Numbered from the stretch's first letter, positions 30,491 to 38,952 are shown. The stretch is DNA of 64,000 bases from Thermodesulfobacteriota bacterium (GCA_963675595.2 CAXXLZ010000002.1:2944001-3008000); one strand, 5' to 3'. A program made the numbers and translations. Notes: a model not told the origin generated them from the letters alone.

Positions 30491-33400
30491 ATGTCAAAGG
30501 TTATGTTTGGGTCCTCGAACCGTAACGACTACGATCATTCACGGAGCCGGCTGATGACTGACATTTTGGTGAAAAAGGACAAGATAGTCTCCGGGTTTAG
30601 CTTGGTTATGGTTTTTGTCTGTTTGGTTATCGTGTTTTCCATGCCCAACATCATTTATGCTTCAGCGTGTTGCATAGATGACGAGGTTCACGGCGAATGC
30701 GCTTTTCGGGATGCTGCTCCCGACCATCGGCCGGAATCGGCATCCTATAGGACTTTTCAAGAGGGTGATTTTATAGGGGTTGCGCCAAGTACTGATACAA
30801 GAGATCCTGAAATTGAAACGAGCCGTTCACTGACTATGATTTCAGGCCGGAACCATCCCAGCCATTCAGCTTCGGGAACCGAAAGCATTTTTCAAGCAGG
30901 AAGATCGGGCACTGCGAACCCGGGTGTCTTAGACGTCACTTCCATCGGTAAAACCGCGAACACCCGCAACATGACCATCAACAGCGCCCCTAAAGTCCTT
31001 CTTGTTTCATCAAGGCTCGATGACGCGCATGATCTCGTGAATGCCGCAAACTCCAACGTGCTGGTGATTCAATATAACCCTGAAACCACGGTTCTGAATG
31101 AACTGAACGCGATGGTGACTGACGCGCTCAAGGGCGGGAAGGCTTCATCCATTGCGTTTGCCGCACATAATTGTGGAAGAAACAAATTTCATATCGCCGA
31201 CTCTGAAGTGATCAGTCTCCGTTCAACGGTTTCCAACAGCAAACAGGGGGAGTTCTGGCGCAAACTTGCCTCCAATCTTGAAAAAGGCGGCAGAATCGAT
31301 CTATTGGCCTGCGACCTTGCTGAAGGAGACGAAGGAGGGTTGCTGATAGGCGCGCTGGAACATGTCACGGGAGTCGACTTCGCGGCTTCGACGGATGCAA
31401 CGGGTAATGCCGAGCATGGAGGAAACTGGATACTTGAAACGGATCGCATCAACGCTGAGGAATATTTCAACGCCCCTGAAATCAAAAACTATACGGAATT
31501 AATGGCTGCAAACTGGGAACAGACCCAAAAACTTACCGTATCACCATTCAGCAGCGAATTCGGATTCAGCGTAGCCGTTTCCGGAGATGGGAATACCGCG
31601 CTTATCGGGGGTCCCACCGCTGGTTCGGAAGAAGACGGTGAAGTTTTTGTATTCAGATATTCAGAAGGTTCCTGGGTATATGACGAAACCATAGAAGCTC
31701 CCGAAGGCGGTGGTTTTGGAGTTGCCGTCGCACTTTCCCATGATGGAAATACGGCATTGATCGGTGCCGATCGCGGGGAGAAGGCGTATATTTACTCGTA
31801 TGACGAGTCCTGGTCTTTGGAGACTACATTTGACCCTTCAGGGTCAAATGAAAGCTTTGGATCCAGTGTATGTCTTTCAGCGGACGGATCAACGGCTGTT
31901 GTTGGTGCACCTCTTTTTGATGATCCGTCACAAAATGCAGGAGTCGTCTATGTATATACGGGAAGCGGTTGGTCGGATGAGACCAAGCTGAGTCCTACGC
32001 TTTACGGCTCCTCTATTGGCGACTCTCAATTTGGTTATAGTGTATCTATTTCATCGGATGGGACAACTCTTCTTGTAGGAGCTCCCTATTTTGGTCTCTC
32101 GCCTCATGGTGTCGTTCTTGTCTTTACGGGCTCAGGCACCTCGTGGACTCAACGGACAGACTTCGAGGGGGATGGTTCAACTGAGTATTTCGGCTCCGGC
32201 GTCTCTCTCGCATCAGATGGGACCACGGCTGTTATCGGAGCGCCGCGTAATAATTCAAGTACCGGAGCGGCCTATATATATACGGGCTCAGGCAGTTCCT
32301 GGACCCAACAGGCAAAGCTTTCAGCAACCGGCGGAGCAACCGGTGACGATTTTGGTACTCGCGTATCTATTTCACCGGATGCCACAACCGTCTTAATCGG
32401 AGCGCCCGGAGATAACTCTGATCTTGGGGCGGCATATATTTTTACCGGTTCCGGCAGCTCCTGGGAACAGCAAGCCAAACTGATCGGCGATAATTCCGTT
32501 GATGAAGACTTTGCGCAATGGAGTATGGCGATCTCCCCGGATGGAAAAACGGCTTTTATTGGAGCGAGATCGTATAACGGCTGGCAAGGAACCACTTATG
32601 TTTTCGAGGCGGCAGGCGGCCCCACTTGGGACGGAAGCGAAAGTTCCGACTGGACGGATGGAGACAACTGGAGCACCGGAACCCAGCCGGGCGCCGATGA
32701 TGATGTCGTAATCCCCGATGCCTCCACAACCGATCATGATCCAAACGTTGCCGGCGGGTATACGGTGAATTCCTTCACCGTGGAGAACGGCGGTGTGGTG
32801 AACTTCACGAGCGCTGCCGCCAAGATCACCGCCGACGAAGGCGTCATCAGTATCACCGGCACCGGTGAAGGAGGGAACGGCGCTCTCAAGGCCGGCAGTT
32901 CGTCCACCCAAATTCAATTGGAGGCCCAGACCGGTAATCTAACCCTTGCGGGCGCCAAGATCGTCTCCAACGGCGGTCTCATCGATATCAAGAGCACCGC
33001 CGGCGCCGTCGTGATCACCGGGGACACGACCCTTTCCGTCGACAATTCAAACGTGAACCTGACTTCAAGCGGAGGGGATATCGCCGGCGGCGGTTCCCTG
33101 ACCATCACGGTGAACGGGGTGGCGGGCGAAAGCGTTACCATCGCCGACGACATCAACGGCCTTGCGGCCCTTACTATATCCAACGCTCCGCAAGTCGATC
33201 TTCAAAACGTCTCGGTCACTACCGGAAACATCGCCGTCACCGGCTCGAACATCGACCTCAACGGCGCCACCTACACCAGTGCCGGCGGTTCCGTCACCTT
33301 CACCGGGGCGGTGGATCTCGATTCCCCCGGCGGGGCGGCCGTTTCGTCCGGGGGCGAGGCCGGCGACGACATCTCCTTTACCGGCACCATCGACGGAAAG

Positions 33401-36220
33401 GACGACGACACCCAGAGTCTCACCCTTGACGCCGGCTCAGCGGGAACCGTTTCGGTTTCCGGCGCCATAGGCGGGACGGCCTCAAAACAAATTAAGACAC
33501 TGACGATCACCAACAGCAACGGCGCCACGTTTTCAGGTGCGGTTACAGCCGACACCGGCGTGGTTCTCACGGACTCCGAGGACGGTTCCGACATCGTCTT
33601 CGACGGCGCCCTCGTGACGCCGACCCTGACGACCGCCGATCAGGGCTATAATGTGCAGCTGAACGGCGACGGAACCACCATTGCCGATCTTGTGGAATTC
33701 CTGAACACGGGTACGGTTTCGCTCGGCGATGCCGCCGGAGATACGCTCACCTTCAACGGCGGGATTGAAACAACCGGCAACGGCAGTAATCCATCTTCCG
33801 TCAGCCTCAACGGCGCCCTGGTGACCTCGAACGACGTGGTTACCCTGGGTGCAACCACCATCAGCGGTACCGCGGCGATCAATTCCGGAGGCGGCGCCAT
33901 CGCCTTTTCAGGAACAACAGGGGGCGGCGGCACACTCACGGCCTCCGGCGGGACGGTAACCTATGGCCTGGCCGGTGCTCAGAGCATTTATACAGGTACC
34001 TACGCGGGGGTTTCCTTTGCAGGAAGCGGCACCAAGACCCTCGCCGGGGCCATCGACGTGAACGGCAACCTTTCCATCGCTCCGGGCGTTACCCTCGATG
34101 TCGCAAACGGCGGTGACTTCGGCATCAACGTAGCCGGAAACTGGAGCAACAACGGGGTATTCGACGGCCGGTCCGGCACCGTGACCTTTGACGGATCCCT
34201 AGCCCAGGGCATTTCCGACAACTCCACCTTCCACAATCTGACCATCAACGCTTCGGCACTGGTGACGCTTGCCGGAGACGTCACTGTCGACGGCACCCTG
34301 ATCCTCACCGACGGCGGCGGATTGATCGACACCGACGGGCATACACTGACTGCCAACGGCACGATTCTGGATGATTCAGCCGGTACTGATTTTGACGGCG
34401 ACCATATGATTATTTCGAATGGTACGGGAAGCCTCCGGCGAACGGCTCCCAATGCCGGGACCTACCTGTTTCCCGTGGGGACCCTGAATGGAACCGCCTA
34501 CTATTCACCGGCGACCCTCATTTTTACCGACGGGTCTTATGACGGCGGCGCCTATGCGGAGATTTCCGTCAATAACAGCAAACAGCCGAACAACACCAGC
34601 ACCACCAATTATCTGAACCGGTACTGGACCGTGGCCCAGAGCGGCATATCGGGTTTTTCCTGTAATGCCTCTTTCAATTACCAGCCGGATGACGTTGCGG
34701 GCACGGAAGCCGATATTTCCGGCGCCGCCTACAGCGGCGGGGCCTGGACGGCACTTAGCCCTGTGGATACGGTCAACCACAAGTTTTCCGGCACGGTTGC
34801 GAGTTTTTCCGATTTTACGGGTGTCGGGTCCTACGGGGTGACCTACAACGCCAACAGCGCCACATCCGGCACGGCGCCCGCCGCTCAAGCCAAGATTAAA
34901 GGCCTGGACCTGACGCTTCAGACGAACTCGGGCAGCCTGGCCAGAACCGGATATACCTTCTCCGGATGGAACACGTCCGCCACCGGACTAGGTACTCACT
35001 ACGACGCCGGAGGCACCTACTCCGCCAATGCAGCCGTGACCCTCTATGCCGAATGGACGGCCGATACCTACACGGTGACCCTTGACGATCAGGGGGGCGC
35101 CGGCGGAAGCGGCAGTGTGACCGCGACCTACGACTCGGCCATGCCTTCGGCCACGGCGCCGACGCGTGACGGGTTCACTTTCGTCGGCTACTACACGGAA
35201 ACCGGAGGTTCCGGAACTCAGTACTATACGGCGGCCATGGCGAGTGCGCGCAACTGGGACCGGACTTCGGACACCACCCTGTACGCGCATTGGACCACCA
35301 TAGTCGCTCCCACGGCTACCGACGCGACGAACGTTTCGGGAACCGGGTTTACGGCCAACTGGCTCAGTGTCGCCGGTGCGACCGGCTACCGGCTGGATGT
35401 GTCGGAACAAGACGATTTCAGCACCTTCGTCACCGGGTACCAGGACAAGGACGTGGGAAATGTCACCTCTTCAGCGATAACCGACCTCAACGAGGTAACG
35501 GAATATTATTACCGTTTGCGGGCCGAGAAAGACGGATCGACAAGCGACCATTCCAATACCATCAGCGTGACCACTTCCGACGGCACCGGGGTTTCGGCGG
35601 GTGTTCAGGATGCCGTCCCCAACGGCGGCGACGGAAACGGCGACGGCATTCAGGACAGCCTGCAGACCAGTGGGGCGTCCCTTCCTTCAGCCTCATCCGA
35701 CCAGAGCTATCTCACCCTGGAAGTCCGGGACGGTTGCGATCGGCTGCACAATGTGGCCACCGGCACCTATGCTTCCGTGGGGACTCCTGATCCGGGCTAC
35801 GAGCATCCCTTTGAGCTGATGTCTTTTAACCTTCCTTGTGCGACGGCCACGGTTCGCGTCTACTATCACGGCGCCGATTCTCTGGCGCATTTTGTCTACC
35901 GGAAATTCGGCCCGACGCCCGACGACTGGAACTCTTCGGTGTGGTACAGCATGCCTGATGTGACTTTCGGAACGGAAGAGATCGATGGAAAGACCGTTCA
36001 CTATGTCGAATTTGTGCTGGAAGAGTCCAAACTGGGCGACGATACCAAAGGTTTCCTATGTGGCCTCAAGTCAAGCCGGAATTGGATAACCGTTTCCTAT
36101 TCGCGCCCGAAGCGCCAAGTACACATGCGATGTAGAAGCGAAGATGCCGCCATTTCCCCAGCGCTACCGATGCAGCCAAACTTTATCGCGGCCGTCTCCG
36201 CTGTTGTCTCCCCGGCTTGA
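30491..36220 (+). CDS. Giant surface/adhesin protein (DUF4347, FG-GAP repeats, beta-helix, InlB-B/Flg_new repeats, FN3, choice-of-anchor U-like); native C-terminus cut off by IS110
   Basis: IDLLACDLA...AASTDATG...GGNWILE; repeated FGxSVxxSxDGxTxxxGAP; GYTFSGWNT...LYAEW; FN3 YYYRLRA; residues after 36056 are IS-derived; start uncertain. Confidence 0.85.
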   Translation: MSKVMFGSSNRNDYDHSRSRLMTDILVKKDKIVSGFSLVMVFVCLVIVFSMPNIIYASACCIDDEVHGECAFRDAAPDHRPESASYRTFQEGDFIGVAPSTDTRDPEIETSRSLTMISGRNHPSHSASGTESIFQAGRSGTANPGVLDVTSIGKTANTRNMTINSAPKVLLVSSRLDDAHDLVNAANSNVLVIQYNPETTVLNELNAMVTDALKGGKASSIAFAAHNCGRNKFHIADSEVISLRSTVSNSKQGEFWRKLASNLEKGGRIDLLACDLAEGDEGGLLIGALEHVTGVDFAASTDATGNAEHGGNWILETDRINAEEYFNAPEIKNYTELMAANWEQTQKLTVSPFSSEFGFSVAVSGDGNTALIGGPTAGSEEDGEVFVFRYSEGSWVYDETIEAPEGGGFGVAVALSHDGNTALIGADRGEKAYIYSYDESWSLETTFDPSGSNESFGSSVCLSADGSTAVVGAPLFDDPSQNAGVVYVYTGSGWSDETKLSPTLYGSSIGDSQFGYSVSISSDGTTLLVGAPYFGLSPHGVVLVFTGSGTSWTQRTDFEGDGSTEYFGSGVSLASDGTTAVIGAPRNNSSTGAAYIYTGSGSSWTQQAKLSATGGATGDDFGTRVSISPDATTVLIGAPGDNSDLGAAYIFTGSGSSWEQQAKLIGDNSVDEDFAQWSMAISPDGKTAFIGARSYNGWQGTTYVFEAAGGPTWDGSESSDWTDGDNWSTGTQPGADDDVVIPDASTTDHDPNVAGGYTVNSFTVENGGVVNFTSAAAKITADEGVISITGTGEGGNGALKAGSSSTQIQLEAQTGNLTLAGAKIVSNGGLIDIKSTAGAVVITGDTTLSVDNSNVNLTSSGGDIAGGGSLTITVNGVAGESVTIADDINGLAALTISNAPQVDLQNVSVTTGNIAVTGSNIDLNGATYTSAGGSVTFTGAVDLDSPGGAAVSSGGEAGDDISFTGTIDGKDDDTQSLTLDAGSAGTVSVSGAIGGTASKQIKTLTITNSNGATFSGAVTADTGVVLTDSEDGSDIVFDGALVTPTLTTADQGYNVQLNGDGTTIADLVEFLNTGTVSLGDAAGDTLTFNGGIETTGNGSNPSSVSLNGALVTSNDVVTLGATTISGTAAINSGGGAIAFSGTTGGGGTLTASGGTVTYGLAGAQSIYTGTYAGVSFAGSGTKTLAGAIDVNGNLSIAPGVTLDVANGGDFGINVAGNWSNNGVFDGRSGTVTFDGSLAQGISDNSTFHNLTINASALVTLAGDVTVDGTLILTDGGGLIDTDGHTLTANGTILDDSAGTDFDGDHMIISNGTGSLRRTAPNAGTYLFPVGTLNGTAYYSPATLIFTDGSYDGGAYAEISVNNSKQPNNTSTTNYLNRYWTVAQSGISGFSCNASFNYQPDDVAGTEADISGAAYSGGAWTALSPVDTVNHKFSGTVASFSDFTGVGSYGVTYNANSATSGTAPAAQAKIKGLDLTLQTNSGSLARTGYTFSGWNTSATGLGTHYDAGGTYSANAAVTLYAEWTADTYTVTLDDQGGAGGSGSVTATYDSAMPSATAPTRDGFTFVGYYTETGGSGTQYYTAAMASARNWDRTSDTTLYAHWTTIVAPTATDATNVSGTGFTANWLSVAGATGYRLDVSEQDDFSTFVTGYQDKDVGNVTSSAITDLNEVTEYYYRLRAEKDGSTSDHSNTISVTTSDGTGVSAGVQDAVPNGGDGNGDGIQDSLQTSGASLPSASSDQSYLTLEVRDGCDRLHNVATGTYASVGTPDPGYEHPFELMSFNLPCATATVRVYYHGADSLAHFVYRKFGPTPDDWNSSVWYSMPDVTFGTEEIDGKTVHYVEFVLEESKLGDDTKGFLCGLKSSRNWITVSYSRPKRQVHMRCRSEDAAISPALPMQPNFIAAVSAVVSPA

Positions 36221-36287
36221 GGCTCGGGACCCACCTCAAGTATGGGTCCCGAGCCGGTTGGGTTCTCCTAAACAAGTCCTAACCGGC
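36060..36287 (-). ncRNA. Candidate bridge/seek RNA of the IS1111 element
   Basis: Hairpin-rich region with 8-nt matches to the empty target (tttcccca, 36153-36160) and circle junction (tttcctat, 36093-36100). Confidence 0.75.
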
Positions 36288-37376
36288 TCATGCTTGGTCC
36301 GCTTGGAGACGAAATTCATAGGTCCGTTTTTCCATGGTCAATCGCCATAGAACAACGGCCAGTTTCCGTGCCAACGCACAAATGGCCTTTTGTGGAAGGC
36401 CCGTTCGCGACAGGAGTTTTCGATAATGCGAATCAATGGCCGGATCCCTGGACTTCCACGTCCAGGCCGCCTCCACCAACAGACTCCGCAGTCGCGTCTG
36501 ACCCACGGGAGGAAGCGCCACTCGAGATTTCCTCTCTCCGCTCTGTCGCACCAGGGGGGCGAGTCCCAGATAGCTGGTCACTTCCTCCACTCGATGGAAC
36601 CGACTCGGGCGAAACAATTCCAGGAGGAAGGTAGCCGCTGTGATGGGACCCACCCCGGGGACGCTTCGAAGGCATCGCATTTCCTCAAAGTGTTCAGGTT
36701 TCTCGCACACACTGGAAGTCCTTTCCTCCATGAAGGCTTTTTCCTTTGTGAGGAAATTCAACTCACGGAGCAAGCTGAGCAGCGTCGCTTTGGCCTCCTT
36801 CGGCAGACGAAGCTTTCGAAGTTGCGCCACAGCGCTTCGGCCCCAATGATTGAGCCCGGGAGGCGCCTCCACACCGTGAAACAGCAGAAGGGATTGAATT
36901 CTCTGCTTAACGCGTCGAGTGCCGTCGGCCAGATCGTGCCGACGGCGAATTACGCTGCGTTCGGCCTCCTCTTCCTCCGTGGGAACGGCGATGGACTTCA
37001 ATATCCCTCGGGCGGCATGGTCCGCCAACCGCATGCAATCCAGGCGGTCGGTCTTGGCCCCCGCAGTCACCGGCCTAGGGACCCGACTCGGCGCCACCAC
37101 GATCACGCTGAACCCGGCTTTGGCCAAAGTGCGCGCAAGGCCGAAGCCGGTGGGCCCCGCTTCGTAGGCTACGGCTCGGATGCGCCTCAAGTGGGGGAGC
37201 AACATGGCCACGATGGCCTCCGGAGAGGCCGAGGACACAAAAGTCTTCACCTCGCCGTCGCTGCGAAGCACGGCCACGTGGTAGCTCTTTTTGTGTACGT
37301 CGATCCCGACGTGGAAATCACGGTCGATATCCAGCTCCAAAAACTTGGCCAATTCTGTTACTTTCGTTGCTACCAT
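36288..37376 (-). CDS. IS110 DEDD recombinase/transposase
   Basis: GIDVHKKS, AYEAG, KTDRLD (DEDD); SVPGVG, SYLGLAP..RQSG (catalytic Ser). Confidence 0.95.
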   Translation of the reverse strand: MVATKVTELAKFLELDIDRDFHVGIDVHKKSYHVAVLRSDGEVKTFVSSASPEAIVAMLLPHLRRIRAVAYEAGPTGFGLARTLAKAGFSVIVVAPSRVPRPVTAGAKTDRLDCMRLADHAARGILKSIAVPTEEEEAERSVIRRRHDLADGTRRVKQRIQSLLLFHGVEAPPGLNHWGRSAVAQLRKLRLPKEAKATLLSLLRELNFLTKEKAFMEERTSSVCEKPEHFEEMRCLRSVPGVGPITAATFLLELFRPSRFHRVEEVTSYLGLAPLVRQSGERKSRVALPPVGQTRLRSLLVEAAWTWKSRDPAIDSHYRKLLSRTGLPQKAICALARKLAVVLWRLTMEKRTYEFRLQADQA

Positions 37377-37447
37377 GTTGGTCTCCTTTCTGTTTGGGTG
37401 ATGCTCCATCATAACGATCGAGCACCTGAGGCCAACATGGTATTTCC

Positions 37448-37602
37448 CCATCATAGATCAAGGCGGCGTCGCTCGAGCGGACGACGCCACCGGTCGAACA
37501 AGCACCGCCGTTCCTACACTCAAAGAGTGTGGACTGATCATTCTGGCGCTTCTATTGGGCTGCGGGGCCCTATGGAGCATCAGACGACGGGAGGAATGCT
37601 GA
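37448..37602 (+). other. Stranded native C-terminus of the surface protein with IPTL-CTERM-like anchor
   Basis: IIDQGG...AVPTLKECGLIILALLLGCGALWSIRRREEC*; in frame with 30491 ORF once the IS is removed. Confidence 0.85.
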
Positions 37603-37690
37603 CCATTCAAGGGAGGACTCTTGAAGAAAGTCCCTTCCGAGCCCTCAAGACCTCACAAACAGGCCTTACCGCCTTCGGCGGAGAGCCTGA
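37603..37690. repeat. REP/MITE-like element (inverted copy of 29985-30085)
   Basis: caggccttaccgccttcggcggagag vs reverse complement caggcctcaccgcctccggcggagag. Confidence 0.6.
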
Positions 37691-37791
37691 GGGGGAATAC
37701 GGTTGCTCGTTAACTTCCAGGGCTCCTTTTTTGAAGCGGGCTTTGAGGTCGTCGCCGCTTACAAGAATCTAAAACATCCCGCCGGCAATGG

Positions 37792-38952
37792 TCACGTCAT
37801 CTCCACCGGCCGCTTCGCCTTAGGCGTGTTTCGGCTGGGATGGACCACGATGCGTCCGTCCACCAACACGAGGGAGACCGCCGGTACGTCTCCTTGCTCC
37901 AACGCCTGCAGGGCATCCTCCCCTACGCCTCCCGCCGGAGCGTCCAGAATGACCAGGTCCGCCGGCCTACCTTCCTTGATCAATCCGGAGCGGAGACCAT
38001 AAACCCCGGCCGTATTTCCCGTGGCCATGCACAAGGCCTGTTCAGGCTCCACCTCGGCCAGGGAAGCGGCCATGCCCACCACCCGTAGTACGCCGAGAGG
38101 CGTCACGCCGCTGCCCGACGGAGAATCGCTGCCCACGATGATTCGGTCCAGAGCGTTGACCTTTTTCGCATACTGGAGGAGAGTCACCAACGCCTTGGGG
38201 TTGCCGCAGTAGACCAACTCAAGGGCGCAGGAGCTCTCCAGCAAAATTCTCTGCATGTCTCCCCTGCTTATTGCGGTGGGTCCCCCGTTGATATGAGAGG
38301 CCACCCGAGGTCGGACTTTGAGAACATGTTGCGCCGTCACGGCTTCGGTTTGGTGCGAAGAGGGTCCGCCCACGTGCATGGTTACGATCATCCCCGACGC
38401 TTGTGCCCACTCGGCCATGACCGCGGCATCGTCGGGCATCGAAACGGAGCCCAGACCGATCTCCCCCACAAGGCGAACACCGTGCGCCGCCATCTCCCTG
38501 AAGTCGTCACGGGTCAGGCCTTCTTCCAGGATCACCGCACCTCCCAGGACCTTTATGCCCCCGGGACGATAATCACGATAGATTTTCGCGGCGAGGATCG
38601 CGAGGGCCTTCGCACCCGCGGGATCTGTCGGACGACCGGGAATATGGACCTCACCCGCGGAGATCAGGGTCGTTACGCCTCCATGGAGAGCGTTTTCCAT
38701 GAACCCGATCTGTTGCTGCCTGGGAGTGTAGTCCGTGAGCCCCACGTGGCAGTGGGAGTCAAGAAGCCCGGGCGCCGCCACGGCACCCTTTGCGTCGATG
38801 ACGGTATCTACTTTCATGGTGGAAGCTTCTTCACTCGATCCGATCCACTTGAAGACTCCGTCTCTGATGAGAAGAGCGTCTCCGGTGATGAAGGGAGAAT
38901 GAATGTTGCCTGAAATGAGCTTTCCGATGTTTCGGATTAGAATAGAGGACAT
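37792..38952 (-). CDS. Amidohydrolase, enamidase-like
   Basis: PGLLDSHCH, SAGEVH.PGRP, MHVGG, SHINGG, GSDSPSGSG. Confidence 0.8.
   Translation of the reverse strand: MSSILIRNIGKLISGNIHSPFITGDALLIRDGVFKWIGSSEEASTMKVDTVIDAKGAVAAPGLLDSHCHVGLTDYTPRQQQIGFMENALHGGVTTLISAGEVHIPGRPTDPAGAKALAILAAKIYRDYRPGGIKVLGGAVILEEGLTRDDFREMAAHGVRLVGEIGLGSVSMPDDAAVMAEWAQASGMIVTMHVGGPSSHQTEAVTAQHVLKVRPRVASHINGGPTAISRGDMQRILLESSCALELVYCGNPKALVTLLQYAKKVNALDRIIVGSDSPSGSGVTPLGVLRVVGMAASLAEVEPEQALCMATGNTAGVYGLRSGLIKEGRPADLVILDAPAGGVGEDALQALEQGDVPAVSLVLVDGRIVVHPSRNTPKAKRPVEMT

Follow-up and report, generated by a model that had tools for sequence, protein, structure and literature searches.

An IS1111-type insertion sequence of a Thermodesulfobacteriota bacterium with a probable bridge (seek) RNA encoded in its right end

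RNA-guided recombination by IS110 and IS1111 elements was described in 2024, and many orthologues are catalogued. Bridge RNAs were predicted in the right end of 93% of the catalogued IS1111 elements (Durrant 2024, PMC11208160). Here we report on such an element in a window of 64,000 nucleotides from a Thermodesulfobacteriota bacterium (GCA_963675595.2, CAXXLZ010000002.1:2944001-3008000), to which plain coordinates refer. An earlier reading, made from the sequence of the window only (the sequence-only reading), had proposed that the non-coding part of an IS1111 element in this window encodes a readable bridge or seek RNA, whose guides match the element's own target and donor. We find that the locus very probably holds an IS1111-type IS110 element in which the 233-nt right end, 3' of a recombinase gene, encodes a bridge (seek) RNA. 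We directly observe the anatomy of the element, its copies, an empty site and the covariation of both guides and stems. As such, the element is ordinary for its family.

The insertion sequence occupies 36055..37445 on the minus strand, 1391 bp including one copy of a 3-nt core, as defined by its copies, their flanks and the empty site. Its only long open frame (36288..37376, minus strand; 362 aa plus stop, with the ATG at 37376-37374 and a GGAG ribosome-binding site upstream) is the transposase/recombinase gene. The protein matches the Pfam families DEDD_Tnp_IS110 (PF01548, 1.3e-15) and Transposase_20 (PF02371, 4.1e-22), which correspond to an N-terminal DEDD RuvC-like and a C-terminal Tnp domain, and it reaches 228.5 bits with the NCBIfam model NF033542, 'IS110 family RNA-guided transposase', for which the cut-off is 140. 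The residues D26, E72, D110, D113 and S279-G280 are invariant in 24 sequences (the element and 23 relatives), and this catalytic set of D, E, D, D and S-G lines up with its counterparts in ISCro4. The transposases of ISCro4 and IS621, both with solved structures, are distantly similar, the IS621 match being weak (E 4e-10); a solved structure of a close relative in the IS1111 branch was not found. The C-terminal part contains GLAPLVRQSG, which fits the motif GL-P----S(t)G described for IS1111 transposases (PMC11187229). These features mark the protein as a predicted DEDD/serine recombinase of the IS110 family, IS1111 type. The layout of the DNA is likewise that of IS1111: 233 nt of non-coding sequence lie downstream of the transposase gene versus 66 nt upstream, and a pair of subterminal inverted repeats (36061..36071 with its partner 37424-37434; pair I15) is 11 nt long, within the range of about 7–17 bp for this group, 10/11 (91%) complementary, 1352 nt apart and placed 6 and 8 nt inward from the ends.

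The genome (6.79 Mb, 3 contigs) contains eight full copies with 99–100% identity, and the flanks of these copies part company exactly at the element ends, give or take a 5-nt TTTCC that is present at both junctions. Contigs of a related organism (sample B, three runs of one sample), which also has the element at other sites, provided the empty site: at the very locus of the window copy they join 36051 to 37443 and omit 1391 bases, with 5 letters ambiguous. By this empty site the insertion is precise and without true target duplication, only the shared core region being ambiguous. The sequence-only reading had put the element at 36057-37447. Indeed, removing this segment gives aaaggtttcc/ccatc and joining its ends gives ggtatttcc/tatg, and because 5 nt are common to both junctions this is equivalent to 36055-37445, but the boundary itself had to be moved: the exchanged core appears to be a 3-nt AAA on the transposase strand (TTT on the plus strand), at 36052..36054 for the right-end junction and, as second copy, at 37443-37445. 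We assign this core because AAA directly precedes the left end TA(C/T)CATG in 21 of the 21 relatives in which the left end was found, because the two target guides described below overlap on exactly 3 core bases, because one copy (L008) differs at the base beside the core at the left junction only, and because a head-to-tail tandem of two elements (L032:1433-4047) has a junction that reads right end-AAA-left end; in this tandem a second RNA copy follows 1342 nt downstream. The right ends of the relatives finish with ...CATA(G/A)G, followed by AAA in most cases. The extra CC common to both junctions is explained by the right end (..AGG), which resembles the target of this copy (..GGGG).

We folded the 233-nt region 3' of the stop codon, with shuffles as control, and found it more stable than these (−100.3 kcal/mol, z = −4.25). 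Read on the minus strand, two stem-loops come right after the stop codon (36221..36289), as the sequence-only reading had said; they are seen both in the fold and as inverted repeats I6 (13 nt, 100%) and I13 (12 nt, 92%). In L009, a relative with 81% identity, the I6 hairpin is kept and the I13 region is poorly conserved, and both stem-loops are absent from the relatives with 49–56% protein identity. They may serve the RNA as a 5' module or be a site of its processing. Then follows the target-binding loop (36146..36192, minus strand), which is delineated by the fold, compensatory pairs, the flanks of the copies and covariation. On a basal stem (36192-36188 with 36150-36146) it carries a 5' guide UAAAGUUU (36185-36178), which pairs with the transposase-sense strand of the core and right target, then GG, a cap hairpin (36176-36163) and the 3' guide UGGGGAAA (36160-36153), which pairs with the other strand of the left target and core. 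The target guides lie on either side of one internal loop and pair with opposite DNA strands, as is characteristic of a bridge RNA or seekRNA. A small hairpin, ACAU-CGC-AUGU (36123..36133, minus strand), stands between the two loops in place of a conserved GUACC-GAAU-CGGUAC hairpin of the relatives, whose helix is invariant and thereby without covariation support. The donor-binding loop (36092..36122, minus strand), for which the covariation of the cap and the recurrence at the right end speak, consists of the 5' segment GUACUU (36122-36117) followed by GG, the cap hairpin GCGC-UUCGG-GCGC with compensatory changes (36115-36103) and the 3' guide AUAGGAAA(C) (36100-36092), a sequence identical to the final 5 nt of the right end followed by the core and the first target base. 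The minus-strand segments listed by the sequence-only reading, namely AAAGTTT (36184-36178), the hairpin GCTGC/GTAGC and TGGGGAAA as well as GTACTT, the hairpin GCGC/GCGC and ATAGGAAA (36100-36093), are all present at these positions.

Matches of this length within one copy are to be read with caution. When we made 5000 dinucleotide-preserving shuffles of the 211-nt region and asked for exact matches of at least 8 nt, 387/5000 matched the 21-nt empty site (either strand) and 338/5000 the 26-nt circle junction. The match in a single copy is consequently only moderately unlikely, so that the strong evidence has to come from the other copies and from the relatives.

The other copies do share the target: all eight are located in related sites and not, as would have spoken against the sequence-only reading, at unrelated ones. 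The left-target sequence GGGGAAA is found at 7/8 copies, with the eighth guide base matching in 3/8, and the right-target sequence AAACTTT at 5/8 copies, where the guide is exact. The window copy and L008 carry AAACCTTT at the right target, and L006 departs further. It had been noted that the guide segment mismatches this half of the target at one position. This is true of the window copy, because its insertion site, within a gene, deviates from the consensus, but AAAGUUU fits the consensus target of 5/8 copies exactly. The 11-mer GGGGAAACTTT occurs 19 times in the genome, compared to 2.6 occurrences expected from base composition, and most of these are arms of a palindrome, GGGGGAAACTTTC..GAAAGTTTCCCCC (for example at G000 C2:40324, C3:102081 and C1:653278), whose surroundings are conserved; several are unoccupied. 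The preferred target (T)GGGG-AAA-CTTT(A), as deduced from the sequences, is one arm of this REP-like palindrome. REP-type repeats are well known as targets of the IS110 family (references within Durrant et al. 2024, PMC11208160). Side by side with our element, the genome has two further IS110-family kinds, with 7 loci (e.g. C2:4148308-4149207) and 5 loci (e.g. C2:318757-319830), and 20 IS110-family transposase genes in all. Because 4/7 copies of one further kind adjoin the same REP-like palindrome at a different position (...cccgga/CCCCTTG), different RNA-guided elements seem to share one host repeat.

More importantly, the guides change together with the targets among the relatives. With E up to 1e-40, a protein search gave 1083 relatives; leaving aside the copies in this genome and one relative at 79%, the best had 52–63% identity. 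A close relative (E up to 1e-60) was present in only 2/400 other sampled genomes of the phylum. We assembled 82 related loci, 80 from a profile scan with one genome per species and 2 from the phylum sample. The 3' regions of the relatives show the same architecture with different guide sequences. Twelve distinct RNAs with both ends form the covariation set (REF, L013, L018, L020, L021, L022, L023, L025, L028, L038, L044 and L050), the relatives among them having 49–56% protein identity. L026, L029 and L032 were left out as near-duplicates of L028 or as tandem, L012, L019, L024, L027, L030, L031, L033, L034 and L036 since one flank was missing (contig end or anchors), and L037-L041 and L053 since they were too distant for the anchors. 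A matrix of longest common substrings between flanks and non-coding regions had a diagonal signal but was noisy for A-rich flanks, and was replaced by an anchored test.

In this test, we summed the best ungapped identities between the 10-nt flanks and the target-loop region of the same element, using deranged pairings as control. The true pairings gave 190/240 identities, while the control averaged 151.4 (sd 3.9, max 167) and in 5000 permutations never came up to 190. At the left target, L018 and L028 match at 10/10 positions and L025 at 9/10 with a 9-nt exact run; at the right target, L018, L023, L028 and L038 match at 8/10, each with a 7–8-nt exact run, and L050 at 9/10. The guide/target covariation that the sequence-only reading had proposed to look for in an alignment of orthologues is therefore there, and the folding that it had proposed alongside returned the target-binding and donor-binding loops on stems with compensatory changes. 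In the consensus structure, 9/20 pairs have double compensatory changes, distributed over the basal stem and both cap hairpins. Paired cells amount to 92.1% vs 81.8% in shuffles, and the stem covariation score is 0.338 vs 0.129 (0/500 shuffles), with slid controls at 0.162 or less. In every relative aligned, the guides occupy homologous positions.

From the 12 sequences we built a covariance model. In the element's own genome it found exactly 9 sites, which are the 8 copies (a training member by construction) and L009. In the related loci it found 25 sites in 24/82 loci, 14 of them outside the training set, and every one of the 25 lies directly 3' of the transposase gene and on its strand. No site was obtained at E up to 0.01 from the remaining 58 loci, whose transposases are mostly 28–40% identical. 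L009 (G000:C1:339451-339997) is a truncated relative with 81% identity, of which only the 3' 547 bp are left. What remains is the end of the transposase gene together with an entire RNA, which the model scores at 84.2 bits; a full copy is 3 kb away. The 5' target guide of L009 agrees with that of the window element, and its 3' target guide is a different one (CCUGCAAA). L009 can be seen as an orphan bridge RNA that was retargeted in nature. The 12-mer predicted as its target occurs once in the genome and is uninformative. An RNA from L009 could, with CCUGCAAA, retarget the resident transposase in trans.

The donor loop is a matter of its own. Its 3' guide is found again at the right end, after TTGAC and the inverted repeat, in 23/23 loci, with L036 doubtful, and it falls into four sequence classes (ATAGGAAA, ATAAGAAA, TAAGAGA and ATAGCAG). 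For the 5' segment, the GGUACUU of the relatives pairs with AAATACC at 6/7 positions, and its C is always opposite the third core A; within the close clade the left end does not vary, so that covariation gives no information on this segment. GUACUU probably recognises the core and the left end TACC, and this putative donor 5' guide is the least supported part of the RNA. Discontinuous pairing was reported for the equivalent guide of IS621, and donor nucleotides of IS1111 were placed in multi-loops (Durrant et al. 2024, PMC11208160). One may ask at this point whether the RNA addresses the target only, as a seekRNA, with the protein recognising the ends via the subterminal inverted repeats. In that case the recurring AUAGGAAA would repeat the right terminus at the DNA level and serve, for instance, as a second recombinase-binding site or as an alternative end, much as the modular ISPpu9 makes several circles via repeated end boxes. 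In the seekRNA paper, the matches identified in IS1111 RNAs were to the target only, and for ISEc11 a short form of 82 nt was enough (both PMC11187229); the imperfect donor 5' segment, which faces an invariant left end, would fit as well. However, AUAGGAAA adjoins a hairpin with compensatory changes and is arranged like the target loop, its motif co-varies with the right end over the four classes, and donor-matching nucleotides have been reported in IS1111 bridge RNAs (Durrant et al., PMC11208160). Although covariation of sequence alone cannot tell a DNA repeat from an RNA guide, we regard a target-only RNA as improbable.

Another possibility is that the element is real and the guide matches are defunct, in that the copies are relics multiplied through duplication or homologous recombination and no RNA is made. 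The shared, near-identical flanks of the copies L002 and L005 point in this direction, and so does the presence of incomplete elements, namely the truncated L009 and L010 (G000:C2:3813470-3813542), a lone left-end fragment of 73 bp with 97% identity, whose flank is unlike the usual target. Against this, most flanks are distinct, and the insertion is polymorphic between related strains with a precise junction. Moreover, seven of the eight copies are internally identical, the open reading frame is intact in 8/8, and the protein of L002, the sole other copy that was translated, is identical. The guides are conserved in L009 even while its surroundings diverged. We thus consider a relic very unlikely. 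The window copy differs from the other seven by 9 clustered differences in the transposase gene (36533-36591), all synonymous, and by 3 further differences just upstream of the target loop (36203-36213), and no difference falls within either binding loop across the eight copies. The element contig of sample B is of the window type; the differences suggest two co-existing variants or a conversion patch. A DNA search of a plasmid collection with the element gave no match. Finally, the matches could be fortuitous, arising between a structured, GC-rich 3' region and junctions rich in A/T. Each 8-mer match of this copy, taken alone, would allow this (about 7–8% of the shuffles), but it is the least credible alternative of all, given how seldom both matches coincide, the homologous guide positions and a covariation value that no permutation attained, which effectively refutes it.

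Several points nevertheless weigh against a bridge RNA at this locus. Both 8-mer matches arose jointly by chance in 28/5000 shuffles. Two or three of the eight sites, those of the window copy, L008 and L006, are off the right target that the guide specifies, and L002 and L005 may be one event that was duplicated later. Five of the 12 elements of the covariation set come from one Desulfovibrionaceae-type group and the relatives are phylogenetically related, due to which the permutation figure overstates independence. The donor 5' segment of our element (UGUACUU) pairs with the core and left end at 5/7 positions; the one mismatch that had been counted in GUACUU is conserved in the relatives. In the more distant L037, L039, L041 and L053 (about 40–48% identity), inspection by eye gave no consistent donor 5' pairing. 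A search of 35500-38000 with 4227 Rfam families at E up to 1 had no match, which shows only that a curated family is lacking. Taking everything together, the element type, the copies, the loops and the covariation support the sequence-only reading in its main claim, an IS1111-type bridge (seek) RNA. It had also called the element a complete and natural RNA-guided recombinase, which is an inference.

How the element may work can be outlined by analogy with ISEc11, IS621 and their relatives, from which we infer that the RNA is made, is bound by the recombinase and guides it, and that a junction promoter and a fold-back control operate. UAAAGUUU would pair with the transposase-sense strand of AAA-CTTT(A) and UGGGGAAA with the opposite strand of (T)GGGG-AAA, and both guides would in this way specify (T)GGGG-AAA-CTTT(A), while AUAGGAAA would recognise the last bases of the right end and the core. 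Recombination inside the 3-nt AAA core would give a precise insertion with the core on both sides. Excision would lead to a circle or tandem, in which TTGACT (36069..36074, minus strand, hand count) and TACCAT (37442-37437, minus strand) would be the −35 and −10 halves of a putative promoter, with a spacing of 17 nt once the ends are joined. This promoter would drive the transposase gene and, downstream, the RNA. In the tandem junction of L032, a promoter scan calls TTGACA-17-TACCAT (10/12), and among the 29 elements examined 20 right ends carry TTGA(C/T) and 21 left ends have TA(C/T)CATG. The integrated copy has a weaker promoter-like site, TTGGCC-16-TATGAT (9/12), at 37435-37408. Junction promoters are documented for ISEc11 (PMC11187229), IS621 (PMC11208160) and ISPpu10, and not for ISPpu9.

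The left end (37371..37442, minus strand; inverted repeat pair I4) may add a second layer of control. Its terminal 15 nt (37442-37428) are an inverted repeat, at 93%, of the region with the ribosome-binding site and start codon (37385-37371), and in the relatives this repeat changes on both sides, as judged by eye. Transcripts that come from outside would include the left-end arm, which is able to fold back on the ribosome-binding site, and this probably blocks the translation of read-through transcripts. Those from the junction promoter would start inside or beyond the arm and would thereby escape the fold-back.

A further observation concerns the base beyond the core. The next base of the donor-loop guide equals the first right-target base in 9/12 elements (permutation mean 5.42; 267/20000) and the cognate left-end T in only 1/12. 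The target-loop guide is followed by U, which matches the T with which the left end starts, in 11/12 elements, and no element has T at the first right-target position. One may speculate that the 3' guide of each loop extends one base beyond AAA and that this base matches the product junction, not the substrate. The C that is conserved opposite the third core base might follow this logic too. If true, the extra base would be an IS1111 counterpart of the 'handshake guides' of IS621, located however in the guides for the opposite DNA strand, and strand exchange would run in a flipped order along with the flipped order of the guides. As the signal is weak and comes from related sequences, we consider the idea rather doubtful, a lead only. 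Within the literature consulted, we found no link between IS1111 and handshake guides: in a 2026 Nature paper, IS1111 appears in the reference list only, and in a 2026 review the words IS1111 and handshake are unconnected.

A host gene that encodes a very large surface protein, of roughly 1,900 aa (30491..36054, plus strand), is broken by the window copy about 50 codons before the gene end. The site is an off-consensus target in coding sequence and not a REP-like repeat. The insertion cuts off the IPTL-CTERM sorting tail, which is found at 37450-37599 (TIGR04174, 28.5 bits vs a cut-off of 20.5), and in the related-strain contigs the gene is unbroken. The insertion inactivates or delocalises this giant IPTL-CTERM surface protein.

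The value of the locus lies in its being an unusually well-documented natural case, with exact ends, a 3-nt core, eight sites, an empty site in a sister strain and a consensus target in a host repeat. Its relatives show how both target guides and one donor guide are reprogrammed in nature. Additionally, our alignment and covariance model cover IS1111-type bridge RNAs, for which there is so far no Rfam family.

The seekRNA elements are among the known systems closest to our element. Like ISEc11, ISPa11, ISKpn4 and ISPst6, it has its non-coding region 3' of the transposase gene, subterminal inverted repeats and the GL-P----SG motif (PMC11187229). As in the seekRNA elements, two overlapping segments match opposite target strands with the top-strand match being 5', the few duplication-like bases are the element's own, and a promoter, here a predicted one, forms at the circle junction (PMC11187229). 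The transposase is with 362 aa somewhat longer than the 330–350 quoted for the IS1111 family, and the target (GGGG-AAA-CTTT in a REP-like palindrome, here deduced from sequence) differs from those of ISEc11, ISPa11, ISKpn4 and ISPst6 (both PMC11187229). With IS621 it shares two internal loops with paired guides to opposite strands that cover the core, the donor 5' guide being a putative one here, as well as the DEDD and serine active-site residues, REP targets and a junction promoter, again predicted here (PMC11208160, PMC11208158). In IS621, on the other hand, the RNA is encoded in the left end ahead of the gene, the first guide of each loop is the one for the bottom strand whereas here it is the top-strand match, the core dinucleotide is CT, and the inverted repeats are only 2–3 bp (PMC11208160). 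The predicted RNAs of ISPa11, ISAzs32 and ISCARN28 are again similar to ours: they are located in the right end, pair over 8–14 nt with target and donor, and hold the donor nucleotides in a multi-loop rather than in a simple internal loop (PMC11208160).

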